Assembly (NCBI GenBank): GCA_002070955.1
Contig: MWEK01000005.1
Span: 82,128 to 146,127, forward strand
DNA from: Planctomycetes bacterium ADurb.Bin069
Lineage (GTDB): Bacteria; Planctomycetota; UBA8108; UBA8890; UBA8898
Reading direction: 5' to 3'
Length of the DNA: 64,000 nucleotides
Shown: in pieces, positions 6,601 to 27,529 of the stretch
Position numbering within the stretch: position 1 is the first letter of the stretch
How the letters are laid out: each line of letters begins with the position of its first letter
Notes under the pieces: generated by a model
What the model saw: only the letters and a program-made list of their open reading frames with translations
Told to the model about the DNA's origin: nothing
The model's database searches: none
Program-made: the position numbers and the translations under genes

Positions 6601-8101
6601 TGTACGTGACCAAACCGACGCCGGCGCTGTCGTCGATCACTTCGCGCATGTGGCCCGGAAGCTGAAGGTCCTCGGTGACGCCGTTCTGGGTGCGCTCGGC
6701 AACGAAGTACGCCGTCGCCGGGCTCGCCTTCCAGTTGGCGTAAACGCCCGTGGGGAGGGTCCGCACCGCGCCGCCGTAGACGCCGACGGGGCTGAGGTCG
6801 GGCGGCAGGGTTACGGTCCCGGTGCTGTCAGTGATCGCCAGATGCGAGAACTTGCCCAACGCGGGCGGATCGCCCCAGCAGTCGTTGTGGTTTTGAACGG
6901 CGTAGCCGAGGAGCATCGTCGCCGGCGTCCAAGCGCGGGGGTGTTCCCGGAGCTGGATCCACGCATCGCCCTCATTCTGCTTCCAGAAGAACCTGTAAGT
7001 GTTGCCGGTGCGCGTCAGGCGCATCCAGATGGGCAGGGTCTTCTGATCCTGGTTCCCGCCGCCCGCGTCGCCGGTGTCTCCCCAGAAGTTCGCGCCGTTG
7101 TCCTGCCGGGAATAGCTCAAAACCTGGCGGCCGCCGTTGATGCCGGCGAAGGCGTAGGGCGAGCCGTTGCCCGTGTGCTCGCGCACCATGAAGCCCGCGC
7201 GGCCCCACCAGCACGGATCCCCGCCGCCCTCTTTGGTGAAGCTCTCGATCTTCACCTGGGCGTCGAAGTCGCCGGAAACCTTCACCGTGCCGTGATGCAC
7301 GTAGTAGAACGAATCCCAGTCCGACCAGATGTCGCCGCCCGCGCCGCTCACGACCATGCCGGGCTCGAACCCGTCCAACGCCGCGGAAGCGCCGCGGAAG
7401 CCCACGTCATCGTTGAATCTGTCGCCGACGCCGCTCTGGACGCCGTTCCACACGGGCTTCGGGGTGGTGTCGACGAGTTTAACGTCGTCGAAATAGACGG
7501 GGCTGCCGTCGTCGCCGCCGTACAAGTCGAGGACCGCGACCGCGACGGGGCCGTTATCGGTGTACTGGGCCTGCGCGACGAGGGCGGCGCCGTTGTAAAA
7601 GACCGCTTTCGTGTTCGCCACCAGATCGATGACCACCTTGATCTCGGACCAGGCGCCGGTCACGAGGGGAAGCGAGTTTGCGCCTCGGATCGTCTCGGTG
7701 ATCGTATCGGTGCCCTTAATCTCGATCTGGCAAGCCCAAACGTTCTGGGCGCCGTACGAGCTCATCAGAATGACGTAGGTACTGCCGGCGTGGTCCGCCG
7801 GCACGAAGACCTTAACGCTGAACTCGCAGGCCCCCTTGGCCTGGTTGAGCCGGCCCACGACATCGTTGTCCCCGCTGATCTTCAGGCTCTTCGTGCCCGA
7901 GGAAGCCTGCTCGGTGGAAACGACGCCGTCGGCCGCGGGGTCATCGCCCCAGGTGGTCCAGATGCCCTTGCCGAACGTGCCGGTCCCCTCTGCGTACGAC
8001 TCGAAGTCATCGAAGATCGTGACGTTCGCGGCGTACGCGGCGCCGGCGGTCATCGCCGCCGCCACCAGCGCCACTATGCACCAACGGTTTCGAAACAACA
8101 T
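3677..8101 (-). CDS. Giant secreted multidomain protein (1474 aa): two ConA/LamG-like lectin domains, FN3-like domains, duplicated jelly-roll (PA14-like) module, DNRLRE-like domain, PKD, C-terminal dockerin pair
   Basis: ORF 3677..8197(-). Start moved to ATG 8101 (MLFRNRWCIVALVAAAMTAGAAYA signal peptide, AAGGAGG 8 nt upstream). PKD-like PLTIVWTATGG...VVTCTVSDG. Dockerin EF-hand-like repeats DANCSKAIDLADAVCILGYLF and DTNNSDSVDLSDAIRVLSYLF. Confidence 0.85.
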   Translation of the reverse strand: MLFRNRWCIVALVAAAMTAGAAYAANVTIFDDFESYAEGTGTFGKGIWTTWGDDPAADGVVSTEQASSGTKSLKISGDNDVVGRLNQAKGACEFSVKVFVPADHAGSTYVILMSSYGAQNVWACQIEIKGTDTITETIRGANSLPLVTGAWSEIKVVIDLVANTKAVFYNGAALVAQAQYTDNGPVAVAVLDLYGGDDGSPVYFDDVKLVDTTPKPVWNGVQSGVGDRFNDDVGFRGASAALDGFEPGMVVSGAGGDIWSDWDSFYYVHHGTVKVSGDFDAQVKIESFTKEGGGDPCWWGRAGFMVREHTGNGSPYAFAGINGGRQVLSYSRQDNGANFWGDTGDAGGGNQDQKTLPIWMRLTRTGNTYRFFWKQNEGDAWIQLREHPRAWTPATMLLGYAVQNHNDCWGDPPALGKFSHLAITDSTGTVTLPPDLSPVGVYGGAVRTLPTGVYANWKASPATAYFVAERTQNGVTEDLQLPGHMREVIDDSAGVGLVTYRLTAYDGLGREGGNALMPLWTNGVDSNGYVMQWNITPHLGQPYGWWPAVSDARKDYLTDGAGITEANILPIPGTTVNTNFNGAAASTGCTCGWWKAGCFCNPVTFMYQPARVDGYFDYNDIFGDIDDVMTYMVAYITNTTDADQGLFFEFNSDDSMVIMIDNTVWNIYQGCCYGTGLGLLTPGEHRLMLKVFEGGGGHNARLRILNTQTMQPFPTGDLIISAYPASMTSVPGPLPEPQGISTSGFVTDWLLLGQYREPYGCGPSTNDMLKDYLTEGAGGTQKTEENIVPVQGMKVYTDYGAAASTSCERGTAPEATCDPLTVFAVHRDDGYVDFNGVFGDQDNLMTYMFAYVTNHTDAHVLVQLGTGSDDSIAVKLDNFVWQAVSACRGHVANNDTTIMSIPPGTHRLMAKVFEGGGGFGASVSLRDWETRGPVTPGTLTISTTPPDGFVVPPAPACISGLAGAITAQGIKLTWDSSQIYDRYVIERKPVLERDWTVLADDVDGAATSYLDAEPIAGTAAAHYRVTPVYDIGPIAYPVCQALAGVASPGYVIYQEGVFPTAAYTGTQDTHIIINTSNSNQGSSPLFEEGDWNAPDGYDHKEALLSFELAPLPEGKEVQKATLGVFFDSSRNGVYNDHTVYIRQVMKQWNQGTGCCSDGPDAKTGEASWNAARQNQENWEIPGAYGSTDIAAASPEVSAVFGAVSQRWVTFGGEGLKNIIDTWFYEIFPNYGFKITQCEGVDACKPGAANTYIRGAYDFCSSEHPDASRRPILIMYTNRAPTVTVTPAGPLSAELCDATVSFDLSARARDADGDPLTIVWTATGGEVTAGEPPTTARAVFDAVGEYVVTCTVSDGVETTSKDVVIVVTECSGVSLYIGDANCSKAIDLADAVCILGYLFGPETDACKNPCCLAQMDTNNSDSVDLSDAIRVLSYLFAGGNMQGPDGSSILPANSGCLLYPQPTVTLPCARSCPDY
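5290..6520 (-). repeat. Protein-level tandem duplication of a ~200-aa jelly-roll module inside the 3677..8101 gene
   Basis: Copy 1 starts GYVMQWNITPHLGQPYG...KDYLTDGAGITEANILPIPG...LMLKVFEGGGGHNARLRI. Copy 2 starts GFVTDWLLLGQYREPYG...KDYLTEGAGGTQKTEENIVPVQG...LMAKVFEGGGGFGASVSL. Confidence 0.7.
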
Positions 8102-8228
8102 GCCAACAACCTCCTTTTCTCGGATGGACTCTCGCGAGGAAAAAAAGACCGCGCCGGCCGCTCGCAGCGCCTCGCCATCTCCTCTCCTCTGAACCAAGGA
8201 CTGACTACAACACCAAACGCCAACCTCT

Positions 8229-10517: not shown

Positions 10518-12374
10518 CTATCGCCCGCTTGTCTGCCGCTCCGCGCGCTTGCGCTCGTACTCCCGCCAGAGACGCTCGGCTTCCGCCAGCCGCGCCGCCA
10601 GCGTGGCGGTCACGTGCATCAGGTAGAGGTTTGCCCGCAGCGGGTCGACGTTCTCGCCGAGCATTACCTCGCCGGGGCGCAGGCGCTCGCCCGCCGAGCT
10701 TCGCAGCGACTCGGCCTTCTCCAGATCGAGCGCCCGGCCGAGGGGATTGAAGCCGAGCACGAACTGAACCTGGCGCTCGGCATGCATGGCGAGGCGCGCG
10801 GCCGCCTCGGCGCGCGGATGCGCGCACATGCTCACGGCCTGGGAGAGGAGATAGAGGGTCGTGCCGGCCCGCCAGGACGGGATCTCGGTGCCGCCGGCGG
10901 CCGCGACGCAGCCGAAGGGCGTCGAAAGGCAGAGCTGCTCGACGCCCGCCGCGCAGGCGTCCAGCGCCTCGCCGACCCGCGGCGCCACGGGCGAATCGGG
11001 AAACAGGCCCGCGTAGACGGCGAGGGCCAGCGCCGGCCAATGCTGCTCCACCGCGTCGTCCGGGAAGGGGAAGAAGCCGCTCGGAAGCTGGGCGCGGGTC
11101 AGGGCGACCGCCATGTCGTCGGCGCAATCGCGGTCCAGCGGGTCGTTGTCGCGGGCGGCCAGAAGCGAGGCGGCGGCGCACAAGGCCGCGCGCGCGGGTG
11201 TCGTTTCAGGCGCCGGACGGTCCCACGCCGCGCGAAGGAGCGAACGGGCGCGCGCCGCGCGGGCGGGATCGTCGGCGCCCGCCGCGGCGAGCGCCCAGGC
11301 GCAGAACGCGGCGTCCGCCGCGGCGAGGTCCCGCGCATCCGCGAGGCGGGCCAGCAGAGCCGCGCCGAGTTCGGCGACCCTGGCGCGGACGGAGGCCGAG
11401 GGCGCTTCGACGCCGCTCAGGAGCACGAGGTTTTCAGCCGCCGCGCGCACGCCGCCGGCGCGGAGGCGCGCCGGCGTGAAGGTTCGGAGCACGTACGCGG
11501 CCGCTTTGGCGCCCGCCGCCTCGTAAGGGGCCGCGAGGATCTCCGTCCGGCAGCGGGCCGTTCGGCCTTCGATGGCCTCGTCGCGCACAACGAGGGTGTA
11601 AGGCGCGATGCGATCGATGATGCCGAAGTCGACGATGTAGTGGTAGAAACCCGAAGGATGCGGCCGGAGCGGATGGACCTCGAGCGCCTTGCCCCCGTCA
11701 TCCCACGCAATGCGCGCCGTGGGGGCGAGGAGCGGCAGATGGGTCTTGACGAGCGCCTCGCGCACGCCCCGCGGGTGGCACCCGGCCGGAAACGGAACGA
11801 TCTCGATGGCGGGGCCCACCAGGGCGAGGACGGGCGCATCGAAGCGGCAGGCCCGCAAATCGCCCGCGGCCTCGAAGGCGAGCGCCACGGCCAGCGCGCC
11901 CTCGGGCGGCCGCGCCGACAGGCGCACCTCGGCGAAGTCGCGCTCTTTTCCCGGCGGCTCCGACGCACTGCGCCGCAGCGAGCCGTCGGCCATGAACCAC
12001 CTCAGCGCGATGCGCGCGCCGCGCAGATCCCCTTCCGCCATGATCTTCGCGCGGGCGGCGACGAAGGCGCCGGGAGGGACCGTGTGGGCGTAGCTCACCA
12101 CGGCGCCGCCGCGCCCCGGAGCGTCGAAGCGCAGGCTGTAGGGCGGGTCCGCGACGATGGTCGCATCGAGCGCCGCGGCCGTGGCGCCCTCGGGAAACCA
12201 GCCGGGAGCTACCTCGGAGCGCGTCGCCGCGGGCGCGGGTCCGGCGTAAGCGTCGCCCGGCAGCTCGGCGCGGGGCAGGAAGGCGGGGTTGTAGAGCAGG
12301 TTGATCGCCAAGGCGAAGGGGTCGGGATCGCTTCCTCCGGCGAGGAACGCGAGGCCGAGCAGGATGACGCTCAT
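10518..12374 (-). CDS. Secreted protein with CBM-like beta-sandwich, CelD_N-like Ig domain and alpha-helical toroid (distant GH9-like; catalytic residues not verifiable)
   Basis: ORF 10518..12374(-) with MSVILLGLAFLAGG signal. The Ig-like block is HYIVDFGIIDRIAPYTLVV. The C-terminal QVQFVLGFNPLGRAL resembles the GH9 xLLGxNP motif. I do not see the DAGD motif. Confidence 0.55.
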   Translation of the reverse strand: MSVILLGLAFLAGGSDPDPFALAINLLYNPAFLPRAELPGDAYAGPAPAATRSEVAPGWFPEGATAAALDATIVADPPYSLRFDAPGRGGAVVSYAHTVPPGAFVAARAKIMAEGDLRGARIALRWFMADGSLRRSASEPPGKERDFAEVRLSARPPEGALAVALAFEAAGDLRACRFDAPVLALVGPAIEIVPFPAGCHPRGVREALVKTHLPLLAPTARIAWDDGGKALEVHPLRPHPSGFYHYIVDFGIIDRIAPYTLVVRDEAIEGRTARCRTEILAAPYEAAGAKAAAYVLRTFTPARLRAGGVRAAAENLVLLSGVEAPSASVRARVAELGAALLARLADARDLAAADAAFCAWALAAAGADDPARAARARSLLRAAWDRPAPETTPARAALCAAASLLAARDNDPLDRDCADDMAVALTRAQLPSGFFPFPDDAVEQHWPALALAVYAGLFPDSPVAPRVGEALDACAAGVEQLCLSTPFGCVAAAGGTEIPSWRAGTTLYLLSQAVSMCAHPRAEAAARLAMHAERQVQFVLGFNPLGRALDLEKAESLRSSAGERLRPGEVMLGENVDPLRANLYLMHVTATLAARLAEAERLWREYERKRAERQTSGR

Positions 12375-13687
12375 TCGCCGCGCTCCTCGATGCGCAGGAG
12401 CTGGATTCTGCCCCGGACGCAGGCGAGGCGGCGCATCTGCGCCAGCGCGGCGCGCATGTCCTCCGCCGGCGTCCGGTGGACGATGATGACGATGGGCACG
12501 GTGCCGCGGCGCGCCGGGGCGCCGTTGACCACGGGTTCCTTCTGCATCACCGAGGCGATGGAGATCCCGCGGCGGCCGAGGATGGTGCCGACCGCGCCGA
12601 TGACGCCGGGAAGATCTCGCGTGGTGAACCTGATGTAGTAGCGGCTCCGCAGCTTGGCGCCGGGGCGCACGGGCAGGGGAGCGCCCAAAGGCATGGGGTC
12701 GAGCCGGTAGGGCGAGTCGCGCGCGGTGTCGCGCGCGATGTCGATGATGTCGGCCACGACGCTGCTTGCCGTCGGGAAGCGGCCGGCGCCCTTGCCGAAA
12801 TAGAGCGTCGGGCCGGTGGCGTCGCCGTGGACGAGCACGGCGTTGTACTCCCGGGGCACGCCGGCGAGCATGTCGTCCCGGGGAATCATCACGGGCCCGA
12901 CGTACGCCTCGAGCGCGCCCTCGACCTGCCGGGCGATGGCGAGGGGCTTGATCGTGTAGCCCAACTCCGCGGCGTAGGCGACGTCGTCCACGCCGATGCC
13001 GCCGATGCCCTCGATGGCGATCTTGGACCGCGGAATCCAGGAGTGGAAGGCGAGCGCCGCCAGGATCGTCAGCTTGTGGGCCGCATCGAAGCCGCCCACA
13101 TCGAGGCTCGGGTCCGCCTCGGCGAAGCCGTTCCGGCGGGCCTCGTCCAGCGCCTCGCGGAAGGAGAGCCCGGCCGTCTGCATGGCATGCAGGATGTAGT
13201 TGGAGGTGCCGTTGAGGATGCCGACGACCGAGGAGATCCGGTTGGCGCAGAGCCCCTCGCGCACGGCGCGCAGGATGGGAACGCCGCCGGCGACCGAGGC
13301 CTCGAAGCGCAGAAGCACGCGCTTCTCCCGGGCGAGCGCGAAGAGCTCCAGGCCGCGTTCGGCCAGGAGCGCCTTGTTGGCCGTGACGACGTGCTTGCCC
13401 GCCGCGAGCGCCGTCTTGATGATCGCGTAGGCCGTGGTGTTGCCGCCCACGAGTTCGCAGACGACATCGATGTCCGCGCCGCGGGCGATGGACTCCCAGT
13501 TATCGGTCCTGCGCCCGCGGGGAATGCCCAGGCCCTTGAAGGCCTCCGGCCGGACATCGGCGGCGCCCGCGATCCTGATGTCGACGTTCTCGAGAACGCG
13601 TGTCTTCGCCCGCACCGCGCCGAGCAGGCGCGCCGTGCCGGCCCCCACCGTCCCCAGGCCGATAATCCCGACATTGATCCTTCGCAT
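12371..13687 (-). CDS. hom: Homoserine dehydrogenase with C-terminal ACT domain
   Basis: ORF 12371..13687(-). Motifs MRRINVGIIGLGTVGAGTARLL, VVTANKALLA, ILNGTSNYIL, GFAEADPSLDVGGFDAAHKL. Its stop overlaps the next gene's start in ATGA (12371-12374). Confidence 0.9.
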   Translation of the reverse strand: MRRINVGIIGLGTVGAGTARLLGAVRAKTRVLENVDIRIAGAADVRPEAFKGLGIPRGRRTDNWESIARGADIDVVCELVGGNTTAYAIIKTALAAGKHVVTANKALLAERGLELFALAREKRVLLRFEASVAGGVPILRAVREGLCANRISSVVGILNGTSNYILHAMQTAGLSFREALDEARRNGFAEADPSLDVGGFDAAHKLTILAALAFHSWIPRSKIAIEGIGGIGVDDVAYAAELGYTIKPLAIARQVEGALEAYVGPVMIPRDDMLAGVPREYNAVLVHGDATGPTLYFGKGAGRFPTASSVVADIIDIARDTARDSPYRLDPMPLGAPLPVRPGAKLRSRYYIRFTTRDLPGVIGAVGTILGRRGISIASVMQKEPVVNGAPARRGTVPIVIIVHRTPAEDMRAALAQMRRLACVRGRIQLLRIEERGE

Positions 13688-13723: not shown

Positions 13724-13753
13724 AGAATATCGCCTGAAATCGGGCCTTGTCTA
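13724..13753 (-). promoter_or_regulatory. Possible sigma70-like promoter for hom
   Basis: Minus strand reads TAGACA (13753-13748), 18 nt, TATTCT (13729-13724). GGAGGG RBS precedes ATG 13687. Confidence 0.3.
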
Positions 13754-13917: not shown

Positions 13918-14883
13918 CTACTCCCCGCACGTTCGGATGGGAAACCTCGTTCCCAGCCGTTCGGTCAGGAACCGCAGGGCGCGGAGGCGCAGAGGGCGGG
14001 GGTAGCCGAGCTTGCCGTCCCGGGTCCGGATGAATTCGCCGCGCCGCAGGGCCTCGCCCGGGTCGTCGGCGCGGATCGCGCCGATGAGCGCGGGCGGCCC
14101 GCGCAGCGTCCCGAGCACAATGTCCGCGTCCTCCGCCGCGCGCAGCGCGGCGCGAATGTCCGCGCACAGCGCGGCGTAGTCGGCCTCCCAGCCGTCCGGC
14201 AGCAGCACCGGGTCGAGCCTGACTCCCAGGCGGTACCCGCGGCGGGCCAGGAGCGCCAGGGCGCGGAGGCGCGCCTTGACGCCGGGCGTGCCGGGCTCGT
14301 AACGCCGCGCCATGGGCGCGGGCGCCAGCGAGAACGCGACGCGGAGGTTGGCAGGCGGCGGCGCGGGCAGCAGGTCGATCGCCGTGAACTTCGTCCTGAG
14401 CTCCATCATCGCGCCAGCGTGTCGTTCCAGGACGGCCGCGAAGGCCCCCACGAGGGGCGCGAGGAACGGATACGCCAGCGGATCGAGGATATGGCCCAAG
14501 TGGACGTACAAGTCCGGCGCGGCCGCGAGGGCCGCGTCGAGCTCGGCGGCCATGTCCGCGACGTTCGCGTAGAAAACCGGATACGGCACCGTCGCGCAGG
14601 TCTTGAGGAAGCAGTAGCGGCAACGGCCCGGGCAGTTGACGCCGCAGGCCAGAAACGCTTCCGGGCGGCCGGCCAGGGAGCATTCGGCCGGCGCGAGCGG
14701 CTTGACGAGCTCGCCCTTGAAGCGGTCGAGGACGAGAATCCGCCAGGGCGCGAGCCCGGGGAAGACGGCGCGCGCCTCCGCCTCGGTCACGCGCGCCTGG
14801 ACCGCGGGCATCGCGGCCAGCGCCGCGCGCACCAGGGATTCGCCCGCGACCTCGGGCCTGATGACGAGGCCGGCCGGCGTCAC
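13918..14883 (-). CDS. Radical SAM protein, spore-photoproduct-lyase (SplB/COG1533) family
   Basis: ORF 13918..14883(-). CPGRCRYC is a CxxxCxxC cluster in the context ILVLDRFKGELVK...FLACGVNCPGRCRYCFLKT, typical of the SPL family. The GTG start overlaps the upstream stop (GTGA at 14880-14883). Confidence 0.8.
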   Translation of the reverse strand: MTPAGLVIRPEVAGESLVRAALAAMPAVQARVTEAEARAVFPGLAPWRILVLDRFKGELVKPLAPAECSLAGRPEAFLACGVNCPGRCRYCFLKTCATVPYPVFYANVADMAAELDAALAAAPDLYVHLGHILDPLAYPFLAPLVGAFAAVLERHAGAMMELRTKFTAIDLLPAPPPANLRVAFSLAPAPMARRYEPGTPGVKARLRALALLARRGYRLGVRLDPVLLPDGWEADYAALCADIRAALRAAEDADIVLGTLRGPPALIGAIRADDPGEALRRGEFIRTRDGKLGYPRPLRLRALRFLTERLGTRFPIRTCGE

Positions 14884-15851
14884 GCCTCCTCTCCCGCGAG
14901 AATGGCGAGAATCCGCTTGATCGCCGCGCGGGCGCGGGCCGACCCGAGCGCCTCGGCGGCCCGGGCGAACCCGGCCTCGTCGCGGACGCGCGCGCGCAGT
15001 TCGATCTCGTCGCCTTCCAGATCGGGGGGCAGCTTGACCTCGACCGGTCCCGCGAGGCCGCCGCGGGCGGCGGCCTCGCGGGCGGCGTCCTCCCAGGCGG
15101 AGAGGCGCGGCAGCGCGCGCCGCCTGAGCAGGCTGCGCAGGGCGGAGACCTTCAGCCGCGGCGGCGTGTCGGCCGCCAACACGGCGCGGATCTCGGGCAG
15201 CGCCGCCGCTTGCGCGATGGACCGCCGCTCGCGCACGGCCGCGTCGGCCAGCAGTTCGCGCAGGATGCGCGCCTCGCCCGCGCTCGGCTGCAGCGCGGCG
15301 AAGACCGCCGCGAGCGCGGCGGCATCGCGGCCGCCGTGCTCCGCCGCCAGGAAGAGATGGCTCGGGCGCAGGGGCAGCGCCGCGATTTCCTCGGGGAGGT
15401 CGGCGAGGGCCAGGTACTTCGCCAGTAACACGGGCGAGGAGGGCAGGCCGCAGGCGGGGAGATAAACGGCGGCGATCTCGTCGGGGCCCAGGCCCGCGAC
15501 GAGCTGCAGGCGGCGGAAAAGCCCCGCGAGCTCAAGCGGCGCGAATTCCCGGTGGGCCGCGTTCTCCCACACGCCGGCCAGAAAGGCCTCGACGGCATCG
15601 GCGGTGCGCACCACCGGCACCTCCGCCAGGCCGAGGTCGGCCGCGGCGCGAAGGCGGCGCGCTCCGCAGAGGAGCAGTCCGTCGGGCGCCACCGCCAGCG
15701 GCGTCATGATCCCGCGCGCCGCAATTGAGCGTCGCAGCCGCTCCGAGGGCCCGGTGCGCGTGTAGATGTAGCGCCGCTCCGCTTCGGTGTCGGCGCGCAA
15801 GGCGCCGGCCGGGAGGAATTCAACGGGAGGGCGGTCGTTCGCAGAGCTCAT
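14880..15851 (-). CDS. ParB/Srx-like N-terminal domain protein (ParB-like, no ParA partner)
   Basis: ORF 14880..15884(-). Carries GARRLRAA (ParB GxxRxxA box), ENAAHREFAPLE (ParB ENxxRxDLxPxE-like) and an LPEEIAA..SH HTH-region-like stretch. ATG 15851 overlaps the upstream GT by 32 nt (alternative TTG at 15800). The C-terminal ~170 aa is Ala/Arg-rich and unrecognised. Confidence 0.7.
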   Translation of the reverse strand: MSSANDRPPVEFLPAGALRADTEAERRYIYTRTGPSERLRRSIAARGIMTPLAVAPDGLLLCGARRLRAAADLGLAEVPVVRTADAVEAFLAGVWENAAHREFAPLELAGLFRRLQLVAGLGPDEIAAVYLPACGLPSSPVLLAKYLALADLPEEIAALPLRPSHLFLAAEHGGRDAAALAAVFAALQPSAGEARILRELLADAAVRERRSIAQAAALPEIRAVLAADTPPRLKVSALRSLLRRRALPRLSAWEDAAREAAARGGLAGPVEVKLPPDLEGDEIELRARVRDEAGFARAAEALGSARARAAIKRILAILAGEEA

Positions 15852-16929
15852 GCAGGTACCCGCGGAGCTGGCGGCCGGCCTCATCCCAACTGTAGCGCGA
15901 GGCGACGTCGCGGGCGCGGCGCCTGAGCCGCGCCAGGAGCGCGCGGTCCTCCCACACCGAGCGCATGGCGTGCGCGAGGGCGAGCACGTCGGGTTTGCCC
16001 ATGAGCCCGCCCGAGTCGCGGTCGTACTCGTAGGGGCCCGCGGAGACGGGTTCGCAGGGGACCTGGAGCGCCGATTCGCGGTCGAAGACCTCGGCGCCGG
16101 CGCCGAAGTTCGTCGTGATCACCGCGCAGCCGCAGGACGCCGCCTCGAGGGCGGCCAGGCCGAATCCCTCGCCGTACGACGGCTGCACGTAGGCATGGGC
16201 CGCGCGGTAGAGCCGCGCGAGATCCTCGTCGAAGAGCGTGCCCGCCTGGAACTTGACGGGAGGCGCGGTCGGGTCGTCGAAGCGGCCCTCGGCGAGCAAC
16301 TCCCGGAACGAGGCGATCTCCCAGGGGAAGCGGCGCGGCCGCTTGCCCGGATCGTACGTCGTCTTGATCAGCAGGCGGACGTCATCGGCCGCGGAGAACG
16401 CGGCGCGATAGGCCAGAAGCAGCTCGCGCAGGCCCTTGCGGTGGTGGGGCGACGCCACGGTGAGAAAGATGAAGGGGCTCGCCGGCGGCTCGGCGCCCGG
16501 CCCGAAGATGCGGCCGTTGACGCCGAAGGGCACCGTCCGCACCAGGTGCGAGGGCACGGAGGCCGCGAGCGCCCCCCGGCGGCAGAACTCGCTGGGCAGG
16601 AGGAGGATGTCGAGCGACCGGCGGATCGCCGGCGCCCATTGGGCGGGCATGCGATCGGCCTCGTAAACGAGGATCCCCGCGCGCCGGGGCGTTCGGAGGC
16701 GGTGATATAGGCCCGGGTGCGCGAAGGTGAGCTCGATGTCCGCCGAAAAGTCCCCGCGCGCCACCTCGCGCACGCCGGGCGGCAGCGGGAACTGCGGGGC
16801 GTGGAGAAAGCCGCGCATCCGGAGGGCGCCGACCTCGACCCCGAGGCGCTGGAGCGCCGCGAGAAACTCGCGGCCGACGCGCGCCCAGCTTGCGGGCGAG
16901 CGCAGGAGTCCGCTGTACAGGACGCGCAC
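15820..16929 (-). CDS. Glycosyltransferase family 1 (GT4-like)
   Basis: ORF 15820..16929(-) with GTG start (VRVLYSG). The C-terminal half has PSYGEGFGLAALEAASCGCAVITT, an E-x7-E type GT1 signature region. Confidence 0.8.
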   Translation of the reverse strand: MRVLYSGLLRSPASWARVGREFLAALQRLGVEVGALRMRGFLHAPQFPLPPGVREVARGDFSADIELTFAHPGLYHRLRTPRRAGILVYEADRMPAQWAPAIRRSLDILLLPSEFCRRGALAASVPSHLVRTVPFGVNGRIFGPGAEPPASPFIFLTVASPHHRKGLRELLLAYRAAFSAADDVRLLIKTTYDPGKRPRRFPWEIASFRELLAEGRFDDPTAPPVKFQAGTLFDEDLARLYRAAHAYVQPSYGEGFGLAALEAASCGCAVITTNFGAGAEVFDRESALQVPCEPVSAGPYEYDRDSGGLMGKPDVLALAHAMRSVWEDRALLARLRRRARDVASRYSWDEAGRQLRGYLHELCERPPSR

Positions 16930-16934
16930 GCGCC

Positions 16935-17303
16935 CTACTTTCCGGCCTGGCCGACCTTCTGGACGAAGTGCAGGCGCAGCCCCTGGAGCACTTCGTCCAG
17001 GGCGCGCTCATCCTCGGCGGCGAGATTCCCCGCGGTCTTCTCCTTGAGAATGCCGAGGGAGTCGATGGCGAACTTCGCGCCCTCAGGGTCCAGTTCGCGG
17101 GTCTCGGCGCCCGGCATTGCCATCTCGCCGAGGGCCACCATGGCCTGGGTGACGAAGGTGGACACGATCGTCATGAAGCTGGCGGGCGGGAGGCGCAGCT
17201 CCTCCTCAGGCTTGCTGCGCAGCTTCTCCTCCAGTTTCCTGCGGGCTTCTTCGGCGCGCGTTTTCCAGTCCTCGTCGGCGCGGCGGGGATCCTTTTCGTT
17301 CAT
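16935..17303 (-). CDS. DUF1844 domain protein
   Basis: ORF 16935..17333(-). LPPASFMTIVSTFVTQAMVALG...DPEGAKFAIDSLGILKEKTAGNL matches my memory of the DUF1844 pattern. ATG 17303 preferred over TTG 17333. Confidence 0.7.
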   Translation of the reverse strand: MNEKDPRRADEDWKTRAEEARRKLEEKLRSKPEEELRLPPASFMTIVSTFVTQAMVALGEMAMPGAETRELDPEGAKFAIDSLGILKEKTAGNLAAEDERALDEVLQGLRLHFVQKVGQAGK

Positions 17304-17334
17304 GGCGGTGTGCTCCGTGGCTTCTGCTTGCAAC

Positions 17335-18081
17335 CTATAGCCTATCGCCTCTGGCCGCCTTCCGCACGAATTCCTCGTACTGCTCCGGCGTGTCGATCCC
17401 CTCGTAGGACCGCTCCGTGAGGACGACCTTGATCTTGTAGCCGTGCTCGAGGACCCGGAGTTGCTCGAGGCGCTCGCGGCGCTCCAGCGGCGTCGGCGCC
17501 AACTCGCCCAGCCGCAGGAGGAAGTCCTTGCGATAAGCGTAGATCCCCGCGTGGTGGAGCCACTCGCAGGAACCCTCGCGCGGGTACGGCACGGGCGCCC
17601 GGGAGAAGTACAGGGCGCAGCCGCGGCAATCGGTCACGATCTTGACCAGATTGGGATTCGCGCGGCCCTCCGGGTCGCTTCGGCGCCGGGCGAGGGTCGC
17701 CATGCACAGGTCCGGTTCGGCGGCGAAGGGCGCCGCGAGGGCGCGGACGTCCTCCGGGTCGATCGAAGGCTCGTCGCCCTGCACGTTGACGACCACGTCG
17801 ACCGCGAGGTCCCGCGCCGCTTCGGCGACCCGGTCCGTGCCGCTGGGATGATCGGCCCTGGTCAGGCGCGTCTCGGCGCCGAAGGAGCGCGCCGCCGCCG
17901 CCACCTCGGGGCTGTCCGCGGCGATGATCACCGCCGCGACCTCCCCCGCGAGGGGCGCCAGCCGTTCCCAGACATGCTGGATAAGGTACTTGCCCGTGCG
18001 GTTGAGGAGCACCTTGCGGGGCAGGCGCGTCGAGGCCAGGCGGGCGGGAATGATCACGGCGACTCGCGGCGTTGCACTCAT
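17335..18081 (-). CDS. kdsB: 3-deoxy-manno-octulosonate cytidylyltransferase (CMP-Kdo synthetase)
   Basis: ORF 17335..18096(-). Start at ATG 18081 (MSATPRVAVIIPARLASTRLPRKVL). Motifs NVQGDEP, HAGIYAYR and LEQLRVLEHG. Confidence 0.9.
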   Translation of the reverse strand: MSATPRVAVIIPARLASTRLPRKVLLNRTGKYLIQHVWERLAPLAGEVAAVIIAADSPEVAAAARSFGAETRLTRADHPSGTDRVAEAARDLAVDVVVNVQGDEPSIDPEDVRALAAPFAAEPDLCMATLARRRSDPEGRANPNLVKIVTDCRGCALYFSRAPVPYPREGSCEWLHHAGIYAYRKDFLLRLGELAPTPLERRERLEQLRVLEHGYKIKVVLTERSYEGIDTPEQYEEFVRKAARGDRL

Positions 18082-18092
18082 GGCTCCGTCCC

Positions 18093-19148
18093 TCACCGGC
18101 GCGGAAACTCTCCGCGCACGACCTCCTGGTACAGCGCGATGGTGTGCTCGACCATGCGGGCCAGGGGGTACTTCTGGGTCACGAAGGCGCGGCCGCGCTC
18201 GCCCAGCTCGCGGGCGAACTCGGGCTCCGCGAGAAGCCGCGTGATGGCGCGGGCCAACCCCTCGGAATCGCCGGGCTCCACGGCCAGCGCGTTCTCCTCG
18301 GCGCGCACCAGATGGAGGAGATCGCCCGCGACGCTGGCGATGACCGGCCGGCGCGAGGCCATGGCCTCCAGGGCCGTCTTGGAGCTCGTGCCCTTCTCGG
18401 CGGGCAGGACGACGATGTCCATGGCGGCGTAGAGCTTGCGCGCCGCGGCCTGGGGCGCGGCGATGGTGACGGCCTCCCGGAGCTTGAGATCGCCGATCGC
18501 GCGGCGCAACGGTCGCTCCTCGGCGCCGTGGGCGGCGACCAGGAAGAGCGCCTCGCGCCCGGAATCGATCACCATGCGGGCGGCGCGCAGGAAAGGCTCG
18601 TGGCTCTTGCCCGCCCCGAAGCGCCCCATGCAGCCCACGACGGGCAGGCGGTGCTCGAAGCGCGGGGCGGGGATGTCGAAGGCGACCAAGTCGACGCCCC
18701 TGGCGATCAGGCGGATCTTCTCCTTGGGCACGTTGAGGCGGTTGACGAGGGTTTCGCGCAGATCCTCGTTGGCCACGATGACGCCTTGGACCTCGGACTC
18801 CTGAAGATGCGTGCCTTCGGCCTCGAGCAGATCGTGGACCGTGAGGAGATAGGTGCGCCGGAGCGCGCGGACGATTCGCCTGGCCGCCTGAAGCGCCTGC
18901 TCGCTCATCACGTGCACGACTTCCGGCTTGAACTCCCGCAGGAAGCGCAGGAGCTTGCGGAAGGAGAAAAAGTTGTGCTTGATGAGATAATTCTCCACCT
19001 TGAAGGCGTCGAGCTGACCGCGCAGCTCGCCGCCCGTCAGGGCGAACTGCAGATCGACGCGCGCCTCCTTGAGGCCGGAGGCCAGATTGAGGGCGTAATC
19101 GCTGCGCCCGTCGTAGGTCAACCGGTCGGCGATGAACAGGACTCGCAT
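18093..19148 (-). CDS. Glycosyltransferase family 1
   Basis: ORF 18093..19148(-), starting MRVLFIADRL. The C-terminal half with GTSSKTALEAMASRRPVIAS is GT1-like. Confidence 0.8.
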   Translation of the reverse strand: MRVLFIADRLTYDGRSDYALNLASGLKEARVDLQFALTGGELRGQLDAFKVENYLIKHNFFSFRKLLRFLREFKPEVVHVMSEQALQAARRIVRALRRTYLLTVHDLLEAEGTHLQESEVQGVIVANEDLRETLVNRLNVPKEKIRLIARGVDLVAFDIPAPRFEHRLPVVGCMGRFGAGKSHEPFLRAARMVIDSGREALFLVAAHGAEERPLRRAIGDLKLREAVTIAAPQAAARKLYAAMDIVVLPAEKGTSSKTALEAMASRRPVIASVAGDLLHLVRAEENALAVEPGDSEGLARAITRLLAEPEFARELGERGRAFVTQKYPLARMVEHTIALYQEVVRGEFPRR

Positions 19149-19264: not shown

Positions 19265-19951
19265 ATGGAGCGAAAACAGGCCATCGTTCTCTTGAGCGGC
19301 GGGATCGACTCGGCGACCTGCGCGGCGCTGGCCCTGCGGGAGGGCTTCGCCGTGACCGCGCTCACCTTCGCCTACGGGCAGCGGCACGCGGTGGAGGTGG
19401 GGCGGGCGCGCGAAATCGGCCGCGCGCTCGGCGTGGCCGCCCACCGGGTGATCGCCATTGACCTGGCGTCGATGGGCGGCTCGGTGCTCACGGGCCCGGG
19501 CGCGGTGCCGCGCGACCGCGGCGACCCCGCCGCGGGCCCCGTGCCGCCGACCTACGTGCCGGCGCGCAACACGGTTTTCCTGGCCTACGCCCTCGCTTGG
19601 GCGGAAGCCGGCGGAGCCTCGGACATCTTCATCGGCGTCAACCATGTGGACTGGAGCGGATATCCCGACTGCCGGCCCGAGTTCATCGAAAGCATGCAGC
19701 GCGTGGCGGAGACCGGCACGCGGGCGGGCGCCGAGGGGCGCGCGCCCGCGATTCGCGCGCCCCTCCTCGCCATGCGCAAGGCCGAGATCATCCGCCTGGC
19801 GCGGTCGCTGGGGGTGGATCTGGGACGCACGCTGAGCTGCTACGATGCCGATGCCGAGGGGCGCGCCTGCGGCCGCTGCGACAGTTGCGTCCTCAGGCGG
19901 CGGGGATTCGCGGAGGCGGGGGCGGAGGATCCGACGCCCTATCGCCCGTGA
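19265..19951 (+). CDS. queC: 7-cyano-7-deazaguanine synthase
   Basis: ORF 19265..19951(+). Has the SGGIDS PP-loop, YGQRH, and the C-terminal Zn cluster CGRCDSCVLRRRGF. Confidence 0.9.
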   Translation: MERKQAIVLLSGGIDSATCAALALREGFAVTALTFAYGQRHAVEVGRAREIGRALGVAAHRVIAIDLASMGGSVLTGPGAVPRDRGDPAAGPVPPTYVPARNTVFLAYALAWAEAGGASDIFIGVNHVDWSGYPDCRPEFIESMQRVAETGTRAGAEGRAPAIRAPLLAMRKAEIIRLARSLGVDLGRTLSCYDADAEGRACGRCDSCVLRRRGFAEAGAEDPTPYRP

Positions 19952-20928: not shown

Positions 20929-23064
20929 TCACTCCTCGGGATGCTGCAGCCGGTAGAGCCGGTAGTAGGTTCCCTCGCGGGCCAGAAGCTCCTCGTGCGT
21001 GCCGGTCTCGGCGATGCGGCCGTTCTCGATGACGATGATCCGGTCGGCGCAGTTGAGCGTCGAGAGCCGGTGCGCGATCAGGAAGGTCAGGCGGTTCTCC
21101 ATGAGGTGGGCGAGCGCCTCCTGGACGAGTTTCTCCGATTCGCTGTCCAGGGCCGAGGTCGCCTCGTCGAGAATCAGGATGGGCGCGTTCTTCAGGAGCG
21201 CGCGGGCGATGGTCATGCGCTGGCGTTCGCCGCCGGAGAGCTTGGCGCCGCGCTCCCCGATCTCCGTGTCGTAGCCCTGGGGCAGGGCCGCGATGACGTC
21301 GTGAATGTTGGCCTTCCGGGCCGCGGCGACGATCTCGTCCAGCGTGGCGTTCCTGCGGCCGTACCTCAGGTTCTCCATGACCGTGGTGTTGAAGAGGAAG
21401 GGTTCCTGGCCCACGATGGCGATCTGGGCGAGCAGCGACTGCTGCGTGATCTTGCGCGTGTCGATCCCGTCCAGGAGAATCGCGCCCTGCTGGGGCTCGT
21501 AGAAGCGCGGGATGAGATCGACCAGCGTGGTCTTGCCGGCGCCGCTCGGGCCCGCGATGCCGATGACCTCGCCGACGGCGGCCGCGAGGGAGATGTTCCG
21601 CAGCACCGGCTCGCGGCCGGCGACCGAACGGTAAGCGAAGGAGACATCGCGGAACTCGATGCCGCTCCGGACGCGGTCGATGGCGATGGCGCCGGGGGCG
21701 TCGCAGACGTCGGGTACGCGGTCGATGACCTCGAAGACGCGCTCGGCGCCCGCGAGCGTCTCCGCCAGGTGGCCGTAGGCGCGCGTGACGCTCTTCAGCG
21801 GCCGGTAGGTGGAGAACAGCGCGCCCAGGAAGATGCCCAGGTCCCCCAGGCCGTGGGTCTGGCGCGTGATGAGGTAGCCGACGGCGAGCACCGCCGCCGC
21901 GACGCCGATATTGTAAAGGATCTCCAACATGCTCCGGCTCGTGATCTTGGCCTTCTCCATCTTCATGGCCAGGCGGATGTACTTGGCGTTCTCCTTGGCG
22001 AAGTTGCGCTGCTCCTCCTCTTCCATGTTGAAGGCCTTGAGGATGCGGATGCCCGTGTAGAGCTGGTGGATCTCCTCGGTGACGATGCCGAGCTGCCGCA
22101 TGCGTCCCCGGCCGTGCTTCTTGACCTTGCGGCCCGCCCGCCACACCGGGTAGAAGATCACGGCCAGGAAAGGCAGGCTTATGAGCGTCAGGGCGGGATG
22201 GACGGCGAAAGCCACCGCCAAGCTGAAGACGATGGTGAAAGGCTCCTCGATGAAGTTCTCGAACATGAACCTGAGGAACTCCTGGAGCACCGCCGTGTCG
22301 TGCATGGAGCGGCTGATCAGATCGCCGCTTTTCTGACGGTCGAAGAAAGCCACCGATTGCCGGCTCAGGTGGGCGTAGACCTCCTCGCGAATATCGGCGG
22401 TGATGCGCAGGTAGACCTTGCGCGAGAAGTAGTCCTTGGCGAAGTTCGCGGCCCCGATGCCGAGGGCCAGGATCAGCGCGATGACGCAGAAGGCCTTGAT
22501 GTATTCGAGGCGCTCCTCGTTCGTGAGCGTGTCGCCGGTGGACCAGTTCACCTCGCCGCTCGTGAAACGCCAGCGCCCGCCGCCCAGGTCCTGGGCGGAC
22601 CGGGGGTCGACGACTTCCATGCGGCTGAAGGGCCGGTCGCGCCCGCCGTCGCCGCGCTCGGCCGCCGGGCCGGGGCCGGTTTCGATCCATAGATCGCGCA
22701 GCGTGCCGCCGGCGCACTCGTAGGAAGTCTTGCCCGGTCCGCGGGAGAAAGCGCCATCGGCGATGAGCTCGATGAAACGGTCGCACTTGCGGTACGATCT
22801 GGCGACGCGCACGTCGGCGCCGAGGAACTCGCTCGCCGCTTGGTAGGCGCGCAGCGCCACGCTTTTTTGGCTTCCGCCGAAGTCGGAGAGCAAGACGCCA
22901 TCGACGAGGAGCCCGATGAGACCCAAGCGCAACGTCAGGCAGGCCGTGTAGCAGGCCGTCAGGGCCATGACCATGACGATGCGCCACATGTAAGGGACCG
23001 CATAGGCGAAGATGCGCCTGATGGTTCTCAGGGTCTGCATGGGGGGGGACGGCGTTTTAGTCAC
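20929..23064 (-). CDS. ABC exporter, fused permease/ATPase (MsbA-like) with enlarged first extracytoplasmic loop
   Basis: ORF 20929..23064(-), GTG start with GGAGG 5 nt upstream. Walker A GPSGAGKTT, signature LSGGERQ, Walker B ILILDEATSALD, H-loop IAHRLST. Confidence 0.85.
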   Translation of the reverse strand: MTKTPSPPMQTLRTIRRIFAYAVPYMWRIVMVMALTACYTACLTLRLGLIGLLVDGVLLSDFGGSQKSVALRAYQAASEFLGADVRVARSYRKCDRFIELIADGAFSRGPGKTSYECAGGTLRDLWIETGPGPAAERGDGGRDRPFSRMEVVDPRSAQDLGGGRWRFTSGEVNWSTGDTLTNEERLEYIKAFCVIALILALGIGAANFAKDYFSRKVYLRITADIREEVYAHLSRQSVAFFDRQKSGDLISRSMHDTAVLQEFLRFMFENFIEEPFTIVFSLAVAFAVHPALTLISLPFLAVIFYPVWRAGRKVKKHGRGRMRQLGIVTEEIHQLYTGIRILKAFNMEEEEQRNFAKENAKYIRLAMKMEKAKITSRSMLEILYNIGVAAAVLAVGYLITRQTHGLGDLGIFLGALFSTYRPLKSVTRAYGHLAETLAGAERVFEVIDRVPDVCDAPGAIAIDRVRSGIEFRDVSFAYRSVAGREPVLRNISLAAAVGEVIGIAGPSGAGKTTLVDLIPRFYEPQQGAILLDGIDTRKITQQSLLAQIAIVGQEPFLFNTTVMENLRYGRRNATLDEIVAAARKANIHDVIAALPQGYDTEIGERGAKLSGGERQRMTIARALLKNAPILILDEATSALDSESEKLVQEALAHLMENRLTFLIAHRLSTLNCADRIIVIENGRIAETGTHEELLAREGTYYRLYRLQHPEE

Positions 23065-23161
23065 ATGCCTCCGCGCTCACACCGGATCGGTCCCGCCTCC
23101 GGCGGGCGGGTCTTGCGAGCCCGCCATCGTATCCGTCCCGCGCGGGAAGACAAGGCGTCGC

Positions 23162-26100
23162 TCAGAGAAAGGCTTCCTTGCGCAGCTCGTGCTTCCGGAT
23201 GAGCTGCGAGAGCTGCGGCCGGTGAATGCCGAGCGCCTCCGCCGCCCGCGTGATGTTCCCCTTCGCGTGCCGCAGCGTCCGCATGATGATGTGCTTCTCG
23301 AGGATCTGCTTGGCATCGCGCAGACTTACCTCGCACCCGGCCAGATCCTGAATTTCGTCGGCCAGCCCCGCGGCCGGGTTCAGGGCGTGCTTCAGGTGCT
23401 GGAGCAGCTCGCGCGGGTTCCCCGCCGGATCTTCCGGCCGGTACCACAGGTGCTGCTTGAGCGGCAGGAGCCGGCGCAAGCCCGCCAGAAGCGAGTTTAC
23501 GGAGGCCTCGGTCTCCTTGGGCGTGGCATCGACCCTGAGCAGCGCGACGAGGGTGCTGTCGCCGAGGACGCCGGCGGGGATGTCGCGGCCGAGGGCGTAC
23601 TGAAGGTTCCGCGCGTGGTGCGGAGCCAGGTCGCCCAGCGGGAACGGCAGGCGCAGGCCCAGGAGCGCGAAGGGCTTCCCGCCGCGGGCCTCCTGGGCCT
23701 GGGCCTCTCGGACGACCTGCGTGAAGTAAGGCTCCACGAGAAACGGCGTGCCGGGCCAGGTCGTGGCCGTCAGGAACGTCCGGCGGTTGCGCCACGCCGC
23801 GCCGGCGTGGATCTGGAACTGCTCCAGGATCTCGCGCGTCCAGGGCGGGAAGCCGCCGTCGCCGTCGATCGTCTGGTCGCCGTACAGGACGCCCATGACT
23901 TCCGTGCCGTTCATGATGGGCAGCAGCACGGCCTCGCGGTCCCTGAACTCGGCCAGCGCGGCGCGGCTTCCGAACTTCTCCTCCTCTTCCTTGCCGGTGG
24001 TGATGAACACGGTGCGGCGTCTGAGCGCCTCGTTGACCAGAATCTCCGCGTAGCTCAGCCGGCCCGTGAGCGTCTCGGGCCGCAGGCCCCGATAGGCGAC
24101 GTACTGCCAGCCCGTCGCCGTGGTCTCGGCGAGGAAGCCGCGGTCGGCCTTCACGAGGTCGAGCCCCAGACCGAGCATCTGCACGTAGAAGTTCGCGTGC
24201 GTCGTCGCCGCGGCCAGGTGCCCGACCTTCGAGAGCAGGTCTTGGTAGGCGGCGGGGTTGAGGGACTCGGAACGGCCGTCGTTCGTCTTCTCGCGGCCGG
24301 CGGAGGACGGGGCGCGGGCCCCGAATTCGCGCCGCAGCCGGTCGTAGTCCTCTTTGAAGAGCTTGCGGCGCTTGTCCGCCCAGAAGCGGAGGGCCTCTTC
24401 CTCCGTCAAGCTCGCCGCGACACGGTCGAGGATGTCGCCGGCCTTGCGGTACCAGCGCTCGGCTTCCTCGTGGCTTTGCTCGAAGTGGTAGGCCTTGCCC
24501 AGGGAGTAGAGGATCTCGAAATGCAGGCCCACATCGGCCACCGAGCGCGCGATCTCGAGCGCGCGGTCGAGGTACTCGCGCCACTTGCCGGGGACGCCGG
24601 TCTCGGAGAGGCGGTACACGAAGCCTTTGATCTGGAGCGCGCGGGCCTGGAGCAGCGGCGCGCGCAGCTCATCGGCGCTGGCCTGGGCCTTGCCCGCCGC
24701 CTTCAGCGCCTCGTCGAAAAGCTCGCGGTCGTAGTAGGTGTAGGCGAGGTCGAGCCGCGCATCGGTTTCCTCGTACTTCATGCCCAGGCCGGCGAACAGG
24801 TCGCTCGCCTTCTGCAGGTGCTTGGCGGCCTCGTCCCACTCCCGGTGTAACGTCGCGATGGCGCCCGCGAGCTGCTCGCTGCGGGCCTCGAAGACGCGCA
24901 GCTTGAACTCCTGGGCCAGGATTTGCACTTGGCGGAGATAGGCCTCGGCCTGCCTGATGTCGCCGAGGAAGAAGTGGGTCTCGCCCAGCGCCATGAAGGC
25001 GGAGACGAGATCCGCGGTGCGGCCGCTTTTCTCGGCGACGCCGATCGCGCTCCGGTAGCACGCAACCGCGTCGCCGATGCCTCCCAGGCTGCGGTAGGCA
25101 TTGCCGGCGTTGATGAGATCGCGGCCGAGGCCGCCCCAGTCTCCGAGCAGTTCGTTGGCCTCGGCGGCCTTGCGCTGCTCCTCGATGGCCTTGGCGAAGT
25201 TGCCGCTGCGCGAGTATACCTCGCCCAGCGCCGCGTAGGAGGCCGCCATGCCCGGGAAGTCGCGGGCGGCGCGCTTGGCATCGAGGGATCGATAGATGTA
25301 GCGCGCGGCGCGGAAGTGGTTGCCCTGGGCGAGATACAGGGCGCCGAGTTCATCGAGGATCGTCCGGGCCGCGTACTCGCCCGCCGCCTGCTCGACGGTC
25401 TCGAGCGCCTGGAGCAGGCTCTCGATGGCCAGGGCGTAGGCTCCTCGCGCGCGGTAGATGCGCGCCAGGAGCTGCCGGAGGTCGGCGCGGGCCATGGCCG
25501 CGTCTTCTCCCTTCGCGTAGCTCAGGCCGCGGAGGCAGTAGTTCAGCGCCTTCTTGGAGTCGTTCCGGTCCAGGTGCACGACGGCGATCGTTTCCCAGAG
25601 GCGCGCCAGGCTCTGTTCGGGGAGCTTTTTGGCGAAGCCCCTGGCCGCCATGCGGAGCGCCTTCGAGTGCCGGCCGGCGGCCATGTAGAGGCGGGCCAAC
25701 CGTCCGTAGAGTTCGGCTCTCTTTTCGTCGCCCAGCGACGGGTCGCCGGGTTCGAAAAGCAGCATCTTGAGATTGCGCTTGGCCGCCTCGGTGCGGCCGA
25801 TATGTTCTTCGATGGCGATGATCTTGCCGGTGACTTCCGCCGGGGTCACGTCGCACGGCGGCGCGGTGCGCAGGATGCCGAGCAGGTTGTATAGGACGAC
25901 CAGCGCGCGTTGAAACGCGAAGTGCCGCGCCAGGAACTCGGCGGCGCGCAGCCCGGGGGTGATGGCCGCGTGCGGGGTGCCGCCGCTCACGAGGTGCTGG
26001 CACAGGGCGTAGGAGAGGCTCGGGTGATCCCGGGGGCCTTCGGCGGCGATGCTCGCGGCGATGCGATCGTGCCAGAGGGCGCGCTCGGAGGGCGTCAGGA

Positions 26101-27331: not shown

Positions 27332-27400
27332 AGAGTCCTTTTTTTCTTCTCCTCTTCGGCGCTCACCCGCGTTTCCGAATCGAATCCGGACGGCGGGAGG

Positions 27401-27439: not shown

Positions 27440-27529
27440 TGGATAGTCTCGACTTTTTAATGCGGGGACTTTTGGGGAGGTAAGTCGTTGATTTAGATCG
27501 TGTTGTGTTTTATCGGACGCGCGTAACAA

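Follow-up and report, generated by a model that had tools for sequence, protein, structure and literature searches.

The window analysed here, i.e., the whole stretch of DNA under study, is made of 64,000 nucleotides (nt) of contig MWEK01000005.1 from Planctomycetes bacterium ADurb.Bin069, with a GC content of 69%. Our interest lies in two adjacent genes on its minus strand, one coding for a ParB-like protein of 323 amino acids (aa) whose N-terminus reads MSSANDRPP... (the “partner” hereafter), the other for a radical S-adenosylmethionine (SAM) enzyme of the spore photoproduct lyase (SPL) family (the “rSAM” hereafter). An earlier note on this DNA, made from the letters alone, had described them as translationally coupled by a GTGA overlap, at the 3' end of a same-strand run formed by a glycosyltransferase (GT) gene, kdsB, a DUF1844 gene and a second GT gene. 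Direct reading of the minus strand confirms both open reading frames (ORFs) and their overlap: on the coding strand, the junction reads ...GGAGGCGTGACG..., with the GTG start of the rSAM gene at 14883-14881 and the TGA stop of the partner gene at 14882-14880. Pfam likewise confirms the gene order, the two GTs, noted as GT1, being of the GT4 type (Glycos_transf_1). The 4-nt overlap between partner and rSAM recurs in two relatives (L001 and L003). The GC content at third codon positions reaches 0.90 for the partner gene and 0.92 for the rSAM gene, which, in a window of this composition, makes both frames clearly coding; moreover, both translations are 100% identical, with the same lengths, to database proteins from Planctomycetota metagenome-assembled genomes. 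Coordinates are given in Table 1.

The same note had taken the two genes for a hard-wired pair, a claim that stands or falls with their adjacency in other genomes. Close relatives, down to 54% identity of the rSAM, keep the whole order kdsB-DUF1844-GT4-ParB-like-rSAM. Searching the rSAM alignment against one genome per GTDB species gave 80 loci, most of them at about 30% identity and belonging to Thermodesulfobacteriota/“Deltaproteobacteria”, Binatia, Verrucomicrobiia and Acidiferrales. In about 60 of these 80 loci, a hidden Markov model (HMM) of the ParB-like protein matched the same-strand ORF that directly precedes the rSAM gene; no more than positions ~173-322 of the HMM were matched, the proteins being about 180 aa long, and an HMM rebuilt from these short proteins found a partner directly upstream and on the same strand in about 65 of the 80. 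The partner is missing from 15 loci, of which 6 are at the edge of a contig and the other 9 form part of a Desulfobulbia-type group with a separate branch in the rSAM tree. Anchoring on the partner instead, an SPL-family rSAM gene lies directly downstream at all ten loci (L084-L093), including all four confirmed in a metagenome scan with the C-terminal domain of the partner, whose yield was low because its tblastn check, made with the divergent sequence of the window, was strict. The partner is found directly upstream of, and co-oriented with, an rSAM carrying Glu or His at the position of the SPL residue Cys140 (see below) in 70+ loci, the two genes overlapping or sitting a few nt apart, and this adjacency spans Planctomycetota, Thermodesulfobacteriota/“Deltaproteobacteria”, Binatia, Verrucomicrobiia and others. 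The pairing is, therefore, neither confined to this genome nor an accident of neighbourhood, and we hold it to be highly probable that the pair is a genuine functional unit.

No relatives of the module were found on viral contigs or plasmids, and PADLOC gave no defence-system match beyond a marginal MTase_II (E=0.001); a defence system or mobile element was rejected on these grounds, and the module behaves like a chromosomal housekeeping unit. Full-text literature searching, including SPL sequence-similarity networks, returned no description of the pair, in agreement with the earlier note, which knew of none; the paper reached via these networks goes no further than naming SPL among the radical SAM subgroups. 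Both components come from known superfamilies.

The Desulfobulbia-type rSAM loci without a partner (L008, L010-L013, L035, L037, L041, L063, L067 and L069) have variable upstream genes: L008 has a MinD/ParA-like ATPase (the upstream ORF of L012 looks the same at its start), L037 and L041 have DnaJ-type ORFs, as judged by eye, and L063 has a family 2 glycosyltransferase (GT2). A ParA/MinD-like ATPase as a substitute partner in L008, and maybe L012, was considered and set aside, as it is not conserved across this partner-less clade.

The partner comes in two forms, either fused to a ParB-type N-terminal domain and a ParB-type helix-turn-helix (HTH) region (~320 aa) or standalone (~180 aa), and an alignment search with the C-terminal domain returned both standalone ~180-aa proteins and many proteins of ~321 aa with ParB_N. 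The region common to all partners corresponds to residues ~146-323 of the window protein. Of the claim that a ParB-type module is hard-wired to an rSAM, the pairing is borne out, with one correction: the element constantly accompanying the rSAM is the C-terminal domain, not the ParB N-domain. Its conserved residues, in alignments including a 126-member set, are R207, K234, R243, ..FPRL.. (P248) and P275-P276-x-x-E279-G280. With its profile, HMMER was run exhaustively against the representatives of 1.84 billion clusters (50% identity) and returned 3,430 proteins at E<=1e-3, 1,987 of them at E<=1e-10, so that the family counts at least 3,430 such clusters. Among the best 148 representatives, about 88 are 300-345 aa long (fused, ~60%) and about 41 are 160-220 aa long (standalone). 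In a rough neighbour-joining tree of the rSAMs, the Planctomycetota clade, which has the fused form, is basal, and the standalone clade is one derived group; the ancestral state is, thus, probably the ParB fusion, from which a single event would have removed the N-terminal ~145 residues.

The C-terminus had been noted as unrecognised, and so it is: neither Pfam nor NCBIfam (2025-2026 libraries) holds a family for it, the rSAM subfamily likewise having no model of its own. An AlphaFold2 (AF2) model of the domain alone is confident, with a predicted local distance difference test (pLDDT) score of 92.2, and consists of helices, then a β-hairpin-like pair, then two helices; Foldseek found no fold match for it, the best E-values being 1.2 in PDB and 0.34 in the BFVD viral structure library.

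The N-terminal part of the fused form is related to ParB, as had been proposed from the signatures GARRLRAA (residues 63-70) and ENAAHREFAPLE (residues 96-107), both present in the protein together with an HTH-like middle. Individual scores are weak, Pfam ParB_N (PF02195) giving 24.2 bits, just below its cut-off of 26.3, and TIGR00180 giving 40.6 for 58.45. A profile of 50 family sequences matches Noc/ParB and related chains at ~1e-11, the alignment with Noc crossing the HTH up to profile position 233. The AF2 model of the full partner (pLDDT 91.1; predicted template modelling score 0.80) matches ParB/Noc/Spo0J structures (7BNK, 6T1F, 7NFU and 1VZ0) with Foldseek E-values of 4e-7 to 1e-4 over ~200 residues, i.e., the N-domain and the HTH. 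Over 126 fused representatives of the family, G63, R65/R66 (GxRR), N97, R101 and E107 are conserved at 83-100%; the catalytic Glu of the canonical GERR is not conserved, which makes nucleotide hydrolysis doubtful, and Box I is altered. One member of the family (P0135) passes the Pfam HTH_ParB cut-off.

With the ParB-family CTP switches (ParB/Spo0J, Noc, KorB and PadC), the partner shares the GxRR arginine patch and ENxxR followed by a helical HTH. It differs from them by having no ParA, no detectable parS, a novel domain in place of the C-terminal dimerisation domain and an N-domain that is dispensable in a large clade, as well as by its coupling to a radical SAM enzyme. The absence of a neighbouring parA noted earlier holds, no ParA-type Walker A motif (KGGxGK[ST]) occurring in any frame of the window. 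As for parS-like sites, which the earlier note had envisaged, the only strong palindrome at the pair is the perfect inverted repeat 15049-15082 (16+2+16), CCCGCGAGGCCGCCGC GG GCGGCGGCCTCGCGGG; it lies in coding sequence (AAREAAARGGLAG), where it encodes ..REAAARGGLAG.., and was rejected as a parS-like site for this position and for being degraded in the relatives L001, L003 and L005. Given this degradation, the repeat probably arises as a side effect of GC-rich Ala/Arg/Gly codons. A canonical partition ParB was rejected as well, given the lack of parA, the sub-threshold scores and the foreign C-domain replacing the dimerisation domain.

One could still imagine that the main role of the partner is to regulate transcription of the rSAM operon, and that it does not physically associate with the enzyme, by analogy with SplA/splB, KorB or VirB. 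The ParB-type HTH architecture and the position immediately upstream of the enzyme gene would fit such a role; we find it quite improbable, since the part bearing the HTH is the one that gets lost while the C-domain is kept, translational coupling suggests a matched production of both proteins, and no conserved operator-like palindrome was found.

The rSAM had been placed in an SPL/SplB-like context on account of its CPGRCRYC cluster; its SPL-family homology is confirmed, its assignment to SplB is not. The protein passes the broad Pfam SPL family (55 bits for a cut-off of 27), and the profile of the rSAM family matches the sequences of the Geobacillus SPL crystal structures at E=6e-32 over ~280 residues, which makes it a true SPL homologue. 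The cluster cysteines C84/C88/C91 are invariant across relatives, as is Arg261, the equivalent of SPL Arg273, and the E-x-K/R-T-K and D-P motifs are common to SPL and the rSAM family. In contrast, scores against the NCBI equivalogs are far too low, with 66.8 bits for 400 in the case of TIGR04070 and 52.5 for 437 in that of TIGR03886; relatives from other clades score 112-135 bits with TIGR04070. One has to keep in mind that the hydrogen atom donor of SPL is a cysteine (Cys140 in Geobacillus, Cys141 in B. subtilis) and that Tyr98/Tyr99 takes part in the radical relay. In the window rSAM, Cys140 (EAACTSD) aligns to His131 (GHILD), the position being occupied by His in the Planctomycetota clade and by Glu in all other clades, and Tyr98 aligns to Phe92, with Tyr or Ile in other clades. 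The C-terminal residues of SPL (Tyr305/Lys309 hairpin) could not be mapped, the last ~60-100 residues of the rSAM being unalignable by sequence. A true SplB was rejected on the TIGR04070 score and the missing Cys140 and Tyr98, and the rSAM constitutes a separate subfamily of SPL-type enzymes. A classical spore photoproduct lyase is unlikely, because Cys140 and Tyr98 are absent and the hosts are largely anaerobes.

With SplB of Geobacillus/Bacillus (PDB 4FHC; TIGR04070), the window rSAM shares the radical SAM fold and CxxxCxYC. The wider subfamily also has extra conserved cysteines (C..CC.Y and a C-terminal Cys) that fall outside the SPL description; besides, the partner gene of SplB in Bacillus is SplA, unlike the ParB-like/C-domain partner found here, and the hosts here are non-sporulating. 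The rSAMs from outside Planctomycetota (loci L006-L083) carry, in the region of window rSAM residues 63-75, an N-terminal C-P..(8-9)..C-C-x-Y, and also a C-terminal Cys, i.e., four extra conserved cysteines that are possibly an auxiliary Fe-S site; Planctomycetota rSAMs do not have the three N-terminal ones; instead, they share C80 and C96 among themselves, with C319 retained.

Taken at face value, the Pfam SPL match, the weak ParB_N and TIGR00180 matches and the public annotation of the partner as a “ParB/RepB/Spo0J family partition protein” would describe a genuine spore photoproduct lyase, devoted to the repair of ultraviolet (UV) damage, sitting beside a partition ParB. We consider this very improbable: besides the equivalog scores (TIGR04070 66.8/400; TIGR00180 40.6/58.45) and the absence of Cys140 and Tyr98, there is no parA, the dimerisation domain has been swapped for a different fold, and the Planctomycetota host is non-sporulating.

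Our preferred reading, to which we give a rough probability of 45%, is that of a chromosomal two-protein module where a DNA-directed radical enzyme would be recruited by a ParB-derived adaptor. The invariant C-domain of ~150-175 aa would be the part facing the enzyme, docking or activating the rSAM; in the fused form, the ParB-type nucleotide (CTP)-binding N-domain and the ParB/Noc-type HTH would bind DNA as a clamp or adaptor and bring the rSAM there. The latter, which keeps the SAM/[4Fe-4S] core and the Arg273 equivalent without the Cys140/Tyr98 hydrogen-return relay, would direct its 5'-deoxyadenosyl radical at a thymine-type DNA lesion or base, so as to directly undo a lesion formed without oxygen, methylene-bridged or otherwise derived from radicals, or to carry out a related base transformation. 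As substrates, lesions formed under anoxia seem more plausible to us than the classical spore photoproduct. Two relationships suggest the link to DNA: the ParB N-domain, with its conserved nucleotide-pocket residues, and the HTH of the fused form imply that the partner would bind DNA like a ParB-family clamp, and the only significant characterised relative of the rSAM is a DNA-repair enzyme, SPL, whose Arg273 has an invariant equivalent here. The role in DNA repair or DNA modification put forward by the earlier note would be of this kind.

ParB/CTP switches are known to act in partition, nucleoid occlusion, transcriptional silencing and bactofilin anchoring; delivering a radical enzyme would, if true, add a further output, and would give a first lead to the function of the large non-sporulating SPL radical SAM branch. 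A DNA substrate would point to either a new DNA modification or a pathway by which anaerobes repair radical-type lesions. Whatever the substrate, a two-gene unit with no described function is present in thousands of non-sporulating bacteria, its C-domain being widespread, confidently modelled and devoid of a solved or viral structural relative, and the public labels “ParB/RepB/Spo0J family partition protein”, “hypothetical protein” and “spore photoproduct lyase” are probably misleading.

Several points weigh against this reading. The link of either protein to DNA is one that we infer. In the largest sampled clade, the partner is the standalone ~180-aa form, from which the ParB N-domain and the greater part of the HTH are gone; DNA clamping cannot, therefore, be essential to the module. 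Moreover, no conserved palindromes were found near the pair in five fused-clade loci. The lack of Cys140 and Tyr98 predicts a chemistry that differs from that of SPL, and many carriers are anaerobes from sediment or soil, where UV photoproducts are irrelevant. Finally, the neighbours are mostly cell-envelope genes, namely GT4/kdsB, GT2, murI, secA and SLT, or CorC and a SurA-like peptidyl-prolyl isomerase (PPIase), depending on the clade, and the tight coupling of a GT gene to the pair, seen in two clades, is not accounted for by a model of repair alone.

Table 1. Position of the pair, its domains and its neighbours in the window.
Feature	Position	Strand	Basis
SPL-family radical SAM enzyme, 321 aa; a distinct subfamily, not true SplB	13918..14883	-	Pfam SPL, 55 bits
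CxxxCxxC cluster motif, C84-P-G-R-C88-R-Y-C91	14611..14634	-	Invariant in all relatives
GTGA stop/start overlap, ParB-like/rSAM	14880..14883	-	Direct sequence reading
Partner, 323 aa: ParB-type N-domain, ParB/Noc-like HTH and novel C-terminal domain	14880..15851	-	AF2, Foldseek, family profile
Putative ParB/Srx-type N-terminal nucleotide-binding domain, residues ~1-100	15552..15851	-	Weak ParB_N/TIGR00180 scores, conserved motifs
G63-A-R-R66	15654-15665	-	
E96-N-A-A-H-R101	15549-15566	-	
ParB/Noc-like helical HTH region, residues ~101-170	15342..15551	-	Noc alignment, Foldseek
Region matching the standalone ~180-aa partner, residues 146-323	14883..15416	-	HMM matches, alignments
GT4 (Glycos_transf_1) glycosyltransferase; 32-nt overlap with the partner gene at its own 3' end	15820..16929	-	Pfam
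DUF1844 protein	16935..17333	-	Pfam
KdsB (CMP-Kdo synthetase family)	17335..18096	-	Pfam
First GT4 glycosyltransferase of the same-strand run	18093..19148	-	Pfam
Imperfect GC-rich palindrome across the rSAM stop codon	13891..13928	.	

The GT genes deserve a closer look, as this context may not be incidental. In Planctomycetota, the GT4 and partner genes share 32-44 nt or leave a gap of 10 nt between them. In the standalone clade, a GT2 gene lies directly upstream and overlaps the start of the partner in 33 of the 39 loci measured, with a modal overlap of 74 nt, and the GT2-partner-rSAM trio is kept across three wider contexts (SLT/TPR ... murI-secA; an amidohydrolase; an EngB-like GTPase ... 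flavin reductase). The fused delta-type clade has a CBS/CorC_HlyC gene upstream, a SurA-like PPIase gene downstream on the other strand, and no GT. The GTs are of two unrelated folds, GT-B here and GT-A elsewhere, and none matched a specific equivalog: the similarity of GT2 to MftF-type models is weak and sub-threshold, all GT2 scores being far below the equivalog cut-offs.

These neighbours are the ground for the main rival explanation, according to which the pair belongs to an envelope or glycan biosynthesis module, the rSAM and the adjacent GT acting on a sugar, a lipid-linked or a peptidoglycan-related substrate, with the partner as a scaffold or specificity factor whose ParB-like part would be a relic or a Noc-like membrane/nucleotide switch. 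It would account for the GT4 gene directly before the pair in Planctomycetota, for GT2 in essentially all loci with a standalone partner and its persistence through the three wider contexts, for the single GT2/partner frame of L022 (see below), for the GT2 directly upstream of the partner-less rSAM in L063, and for kdsB, murI, secA, SLT, SurA-like PPIase and CorC in the neighbourhood. It accommodates less easily the clade with no GT beside the pair and the use of two unrelated GT folds without a specific equivalog match; to our knowledge, no characterised member of the SPL family acts on a non-DNA substrate, and the strongly conserved residues of the ParB nucleotide pocket, together with the HTH, are hard to fit into a glycan pathway. 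All in all, we regard an envelope role as unlikely, while taking it seriously.

Two details of the standalone clade can be added here. In L022 (4608-5822), the GT2 and the standalone partner are in one uninterrupted reading frame, which could be a natural fusion or a sequencing error; if real, it would be a Rosetta-stone link of the GT to the module. In one subclade (L087/L088, L092 and L093), the genes are in the order EngB-like GTPase, GT2, partner, rSAM and flavin reductase (PF01613), the last of which might supply electrons to the radical SAM cluster. A GT2 gene adjoining a radical SAM gene, as in the standalone clade, is also seen in the mycofactocin (MftC/MftF) clusters and in arsenosugar clusters (ArsS with a GT); the rSAM here differs in being of the SPL type, not SPASM or other, and neither a precursor peptide nor an RRE fold accompanies it.

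The coupling to a GT can also be read in terms of DNA hypermodification: SPL chemistry passes via a thymine allylic radical that is normally quenched by Cys140, and an rSAM without the quenching residues would generate, under anoxia, a radical on thymine (C5-methyl) or another base, which the GT would glycosylate, the ParB-like protein targeting or spreading the reaction. ParB-like proteins do serve in DNA-modification systems, as DndB and DpdB, where a ParB/Srx-fold protein acts alongside DNA-modifying enzymes, a concept to which the partner may be likened. This explanation is nevertheless improbable, since the pair goes without a restriction or defence partner, PADLOC gave no hit, copies on phages or plasmids were not found, the syntenic setting is that of a housekeeping unit, and one clade has no GT. 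We are at least as reserved, judging it poorly probable, about an oxygen-independent route in which the radical would arise on the thymine methyl or another base position in duplex DNA, the coupled GT would add a sugar and the ParB-derived CTP switch would load the machinery onto the chromosome or spread it there, which would be the equivalent, in anaerobic bacteria, of the JBP/JGT “base J” logic. Base glycosylation of this kind would be a hybrid of the preferred reading and its main rival. The pair itself differs from Dnd and Dpd in having no PADLOC match and in lying outside mobile or defence islands.

QueC (7-cyano-7-deazaguanine synthase) is encoded nearby, at 19265-19951 (+), divergently from the GT4-kdsB-...-rSAM run. 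The Dpd-like system at which it might hint was rejected: no TGT/DpdA domain occurs in the ~33 ORFs of the window scanned with Pfam, no Dnd or Dpd genes turned up, and only this divergent QueC is present. Past QueC come an epimerase and an MsbA-like ABC transporter (20932-23076, -), a layout shared with the relatives L001 and L003.

On the 3' side of the rSAM gene, a 230-nt gap with a promoter-like site (13724-13753) precedes hom (homoserine dehydrogenase), and the palindrome listed in Table 1 together with this gap is the probable end of the operon. The hom gene (12371-13687, -) itself overlaps by 4 nt an ORF of 618 aa (10518-12374, -) without Pfam match, forming a second translationally coupled pair. 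UvrC, of nucleotide excision repair, is encoded at 30772-32802 (-), ~16 kb from the pair and non-adjacent to it; no such linkage was seen in other loci. Elsewhere in the window, we found a STAND-like regulator of 1,455 aa (23165-27529, -) with AAA_16, many TPR repeats, GAF and a Fis-type HTH_8, and three ORFs of ~1,250-1,500 aa (3677-8197, -; 33415-37152, -; 39517-43839, +). Giant dockerin-type proteins are typical of Planctomycetota; two of these three have a Pfam dockerin type I domain, one of the two also having CotH kinase and lamin-tail domains, and the C-terminus of the ORF at 3677-8197 looks dockerin-like by eye.

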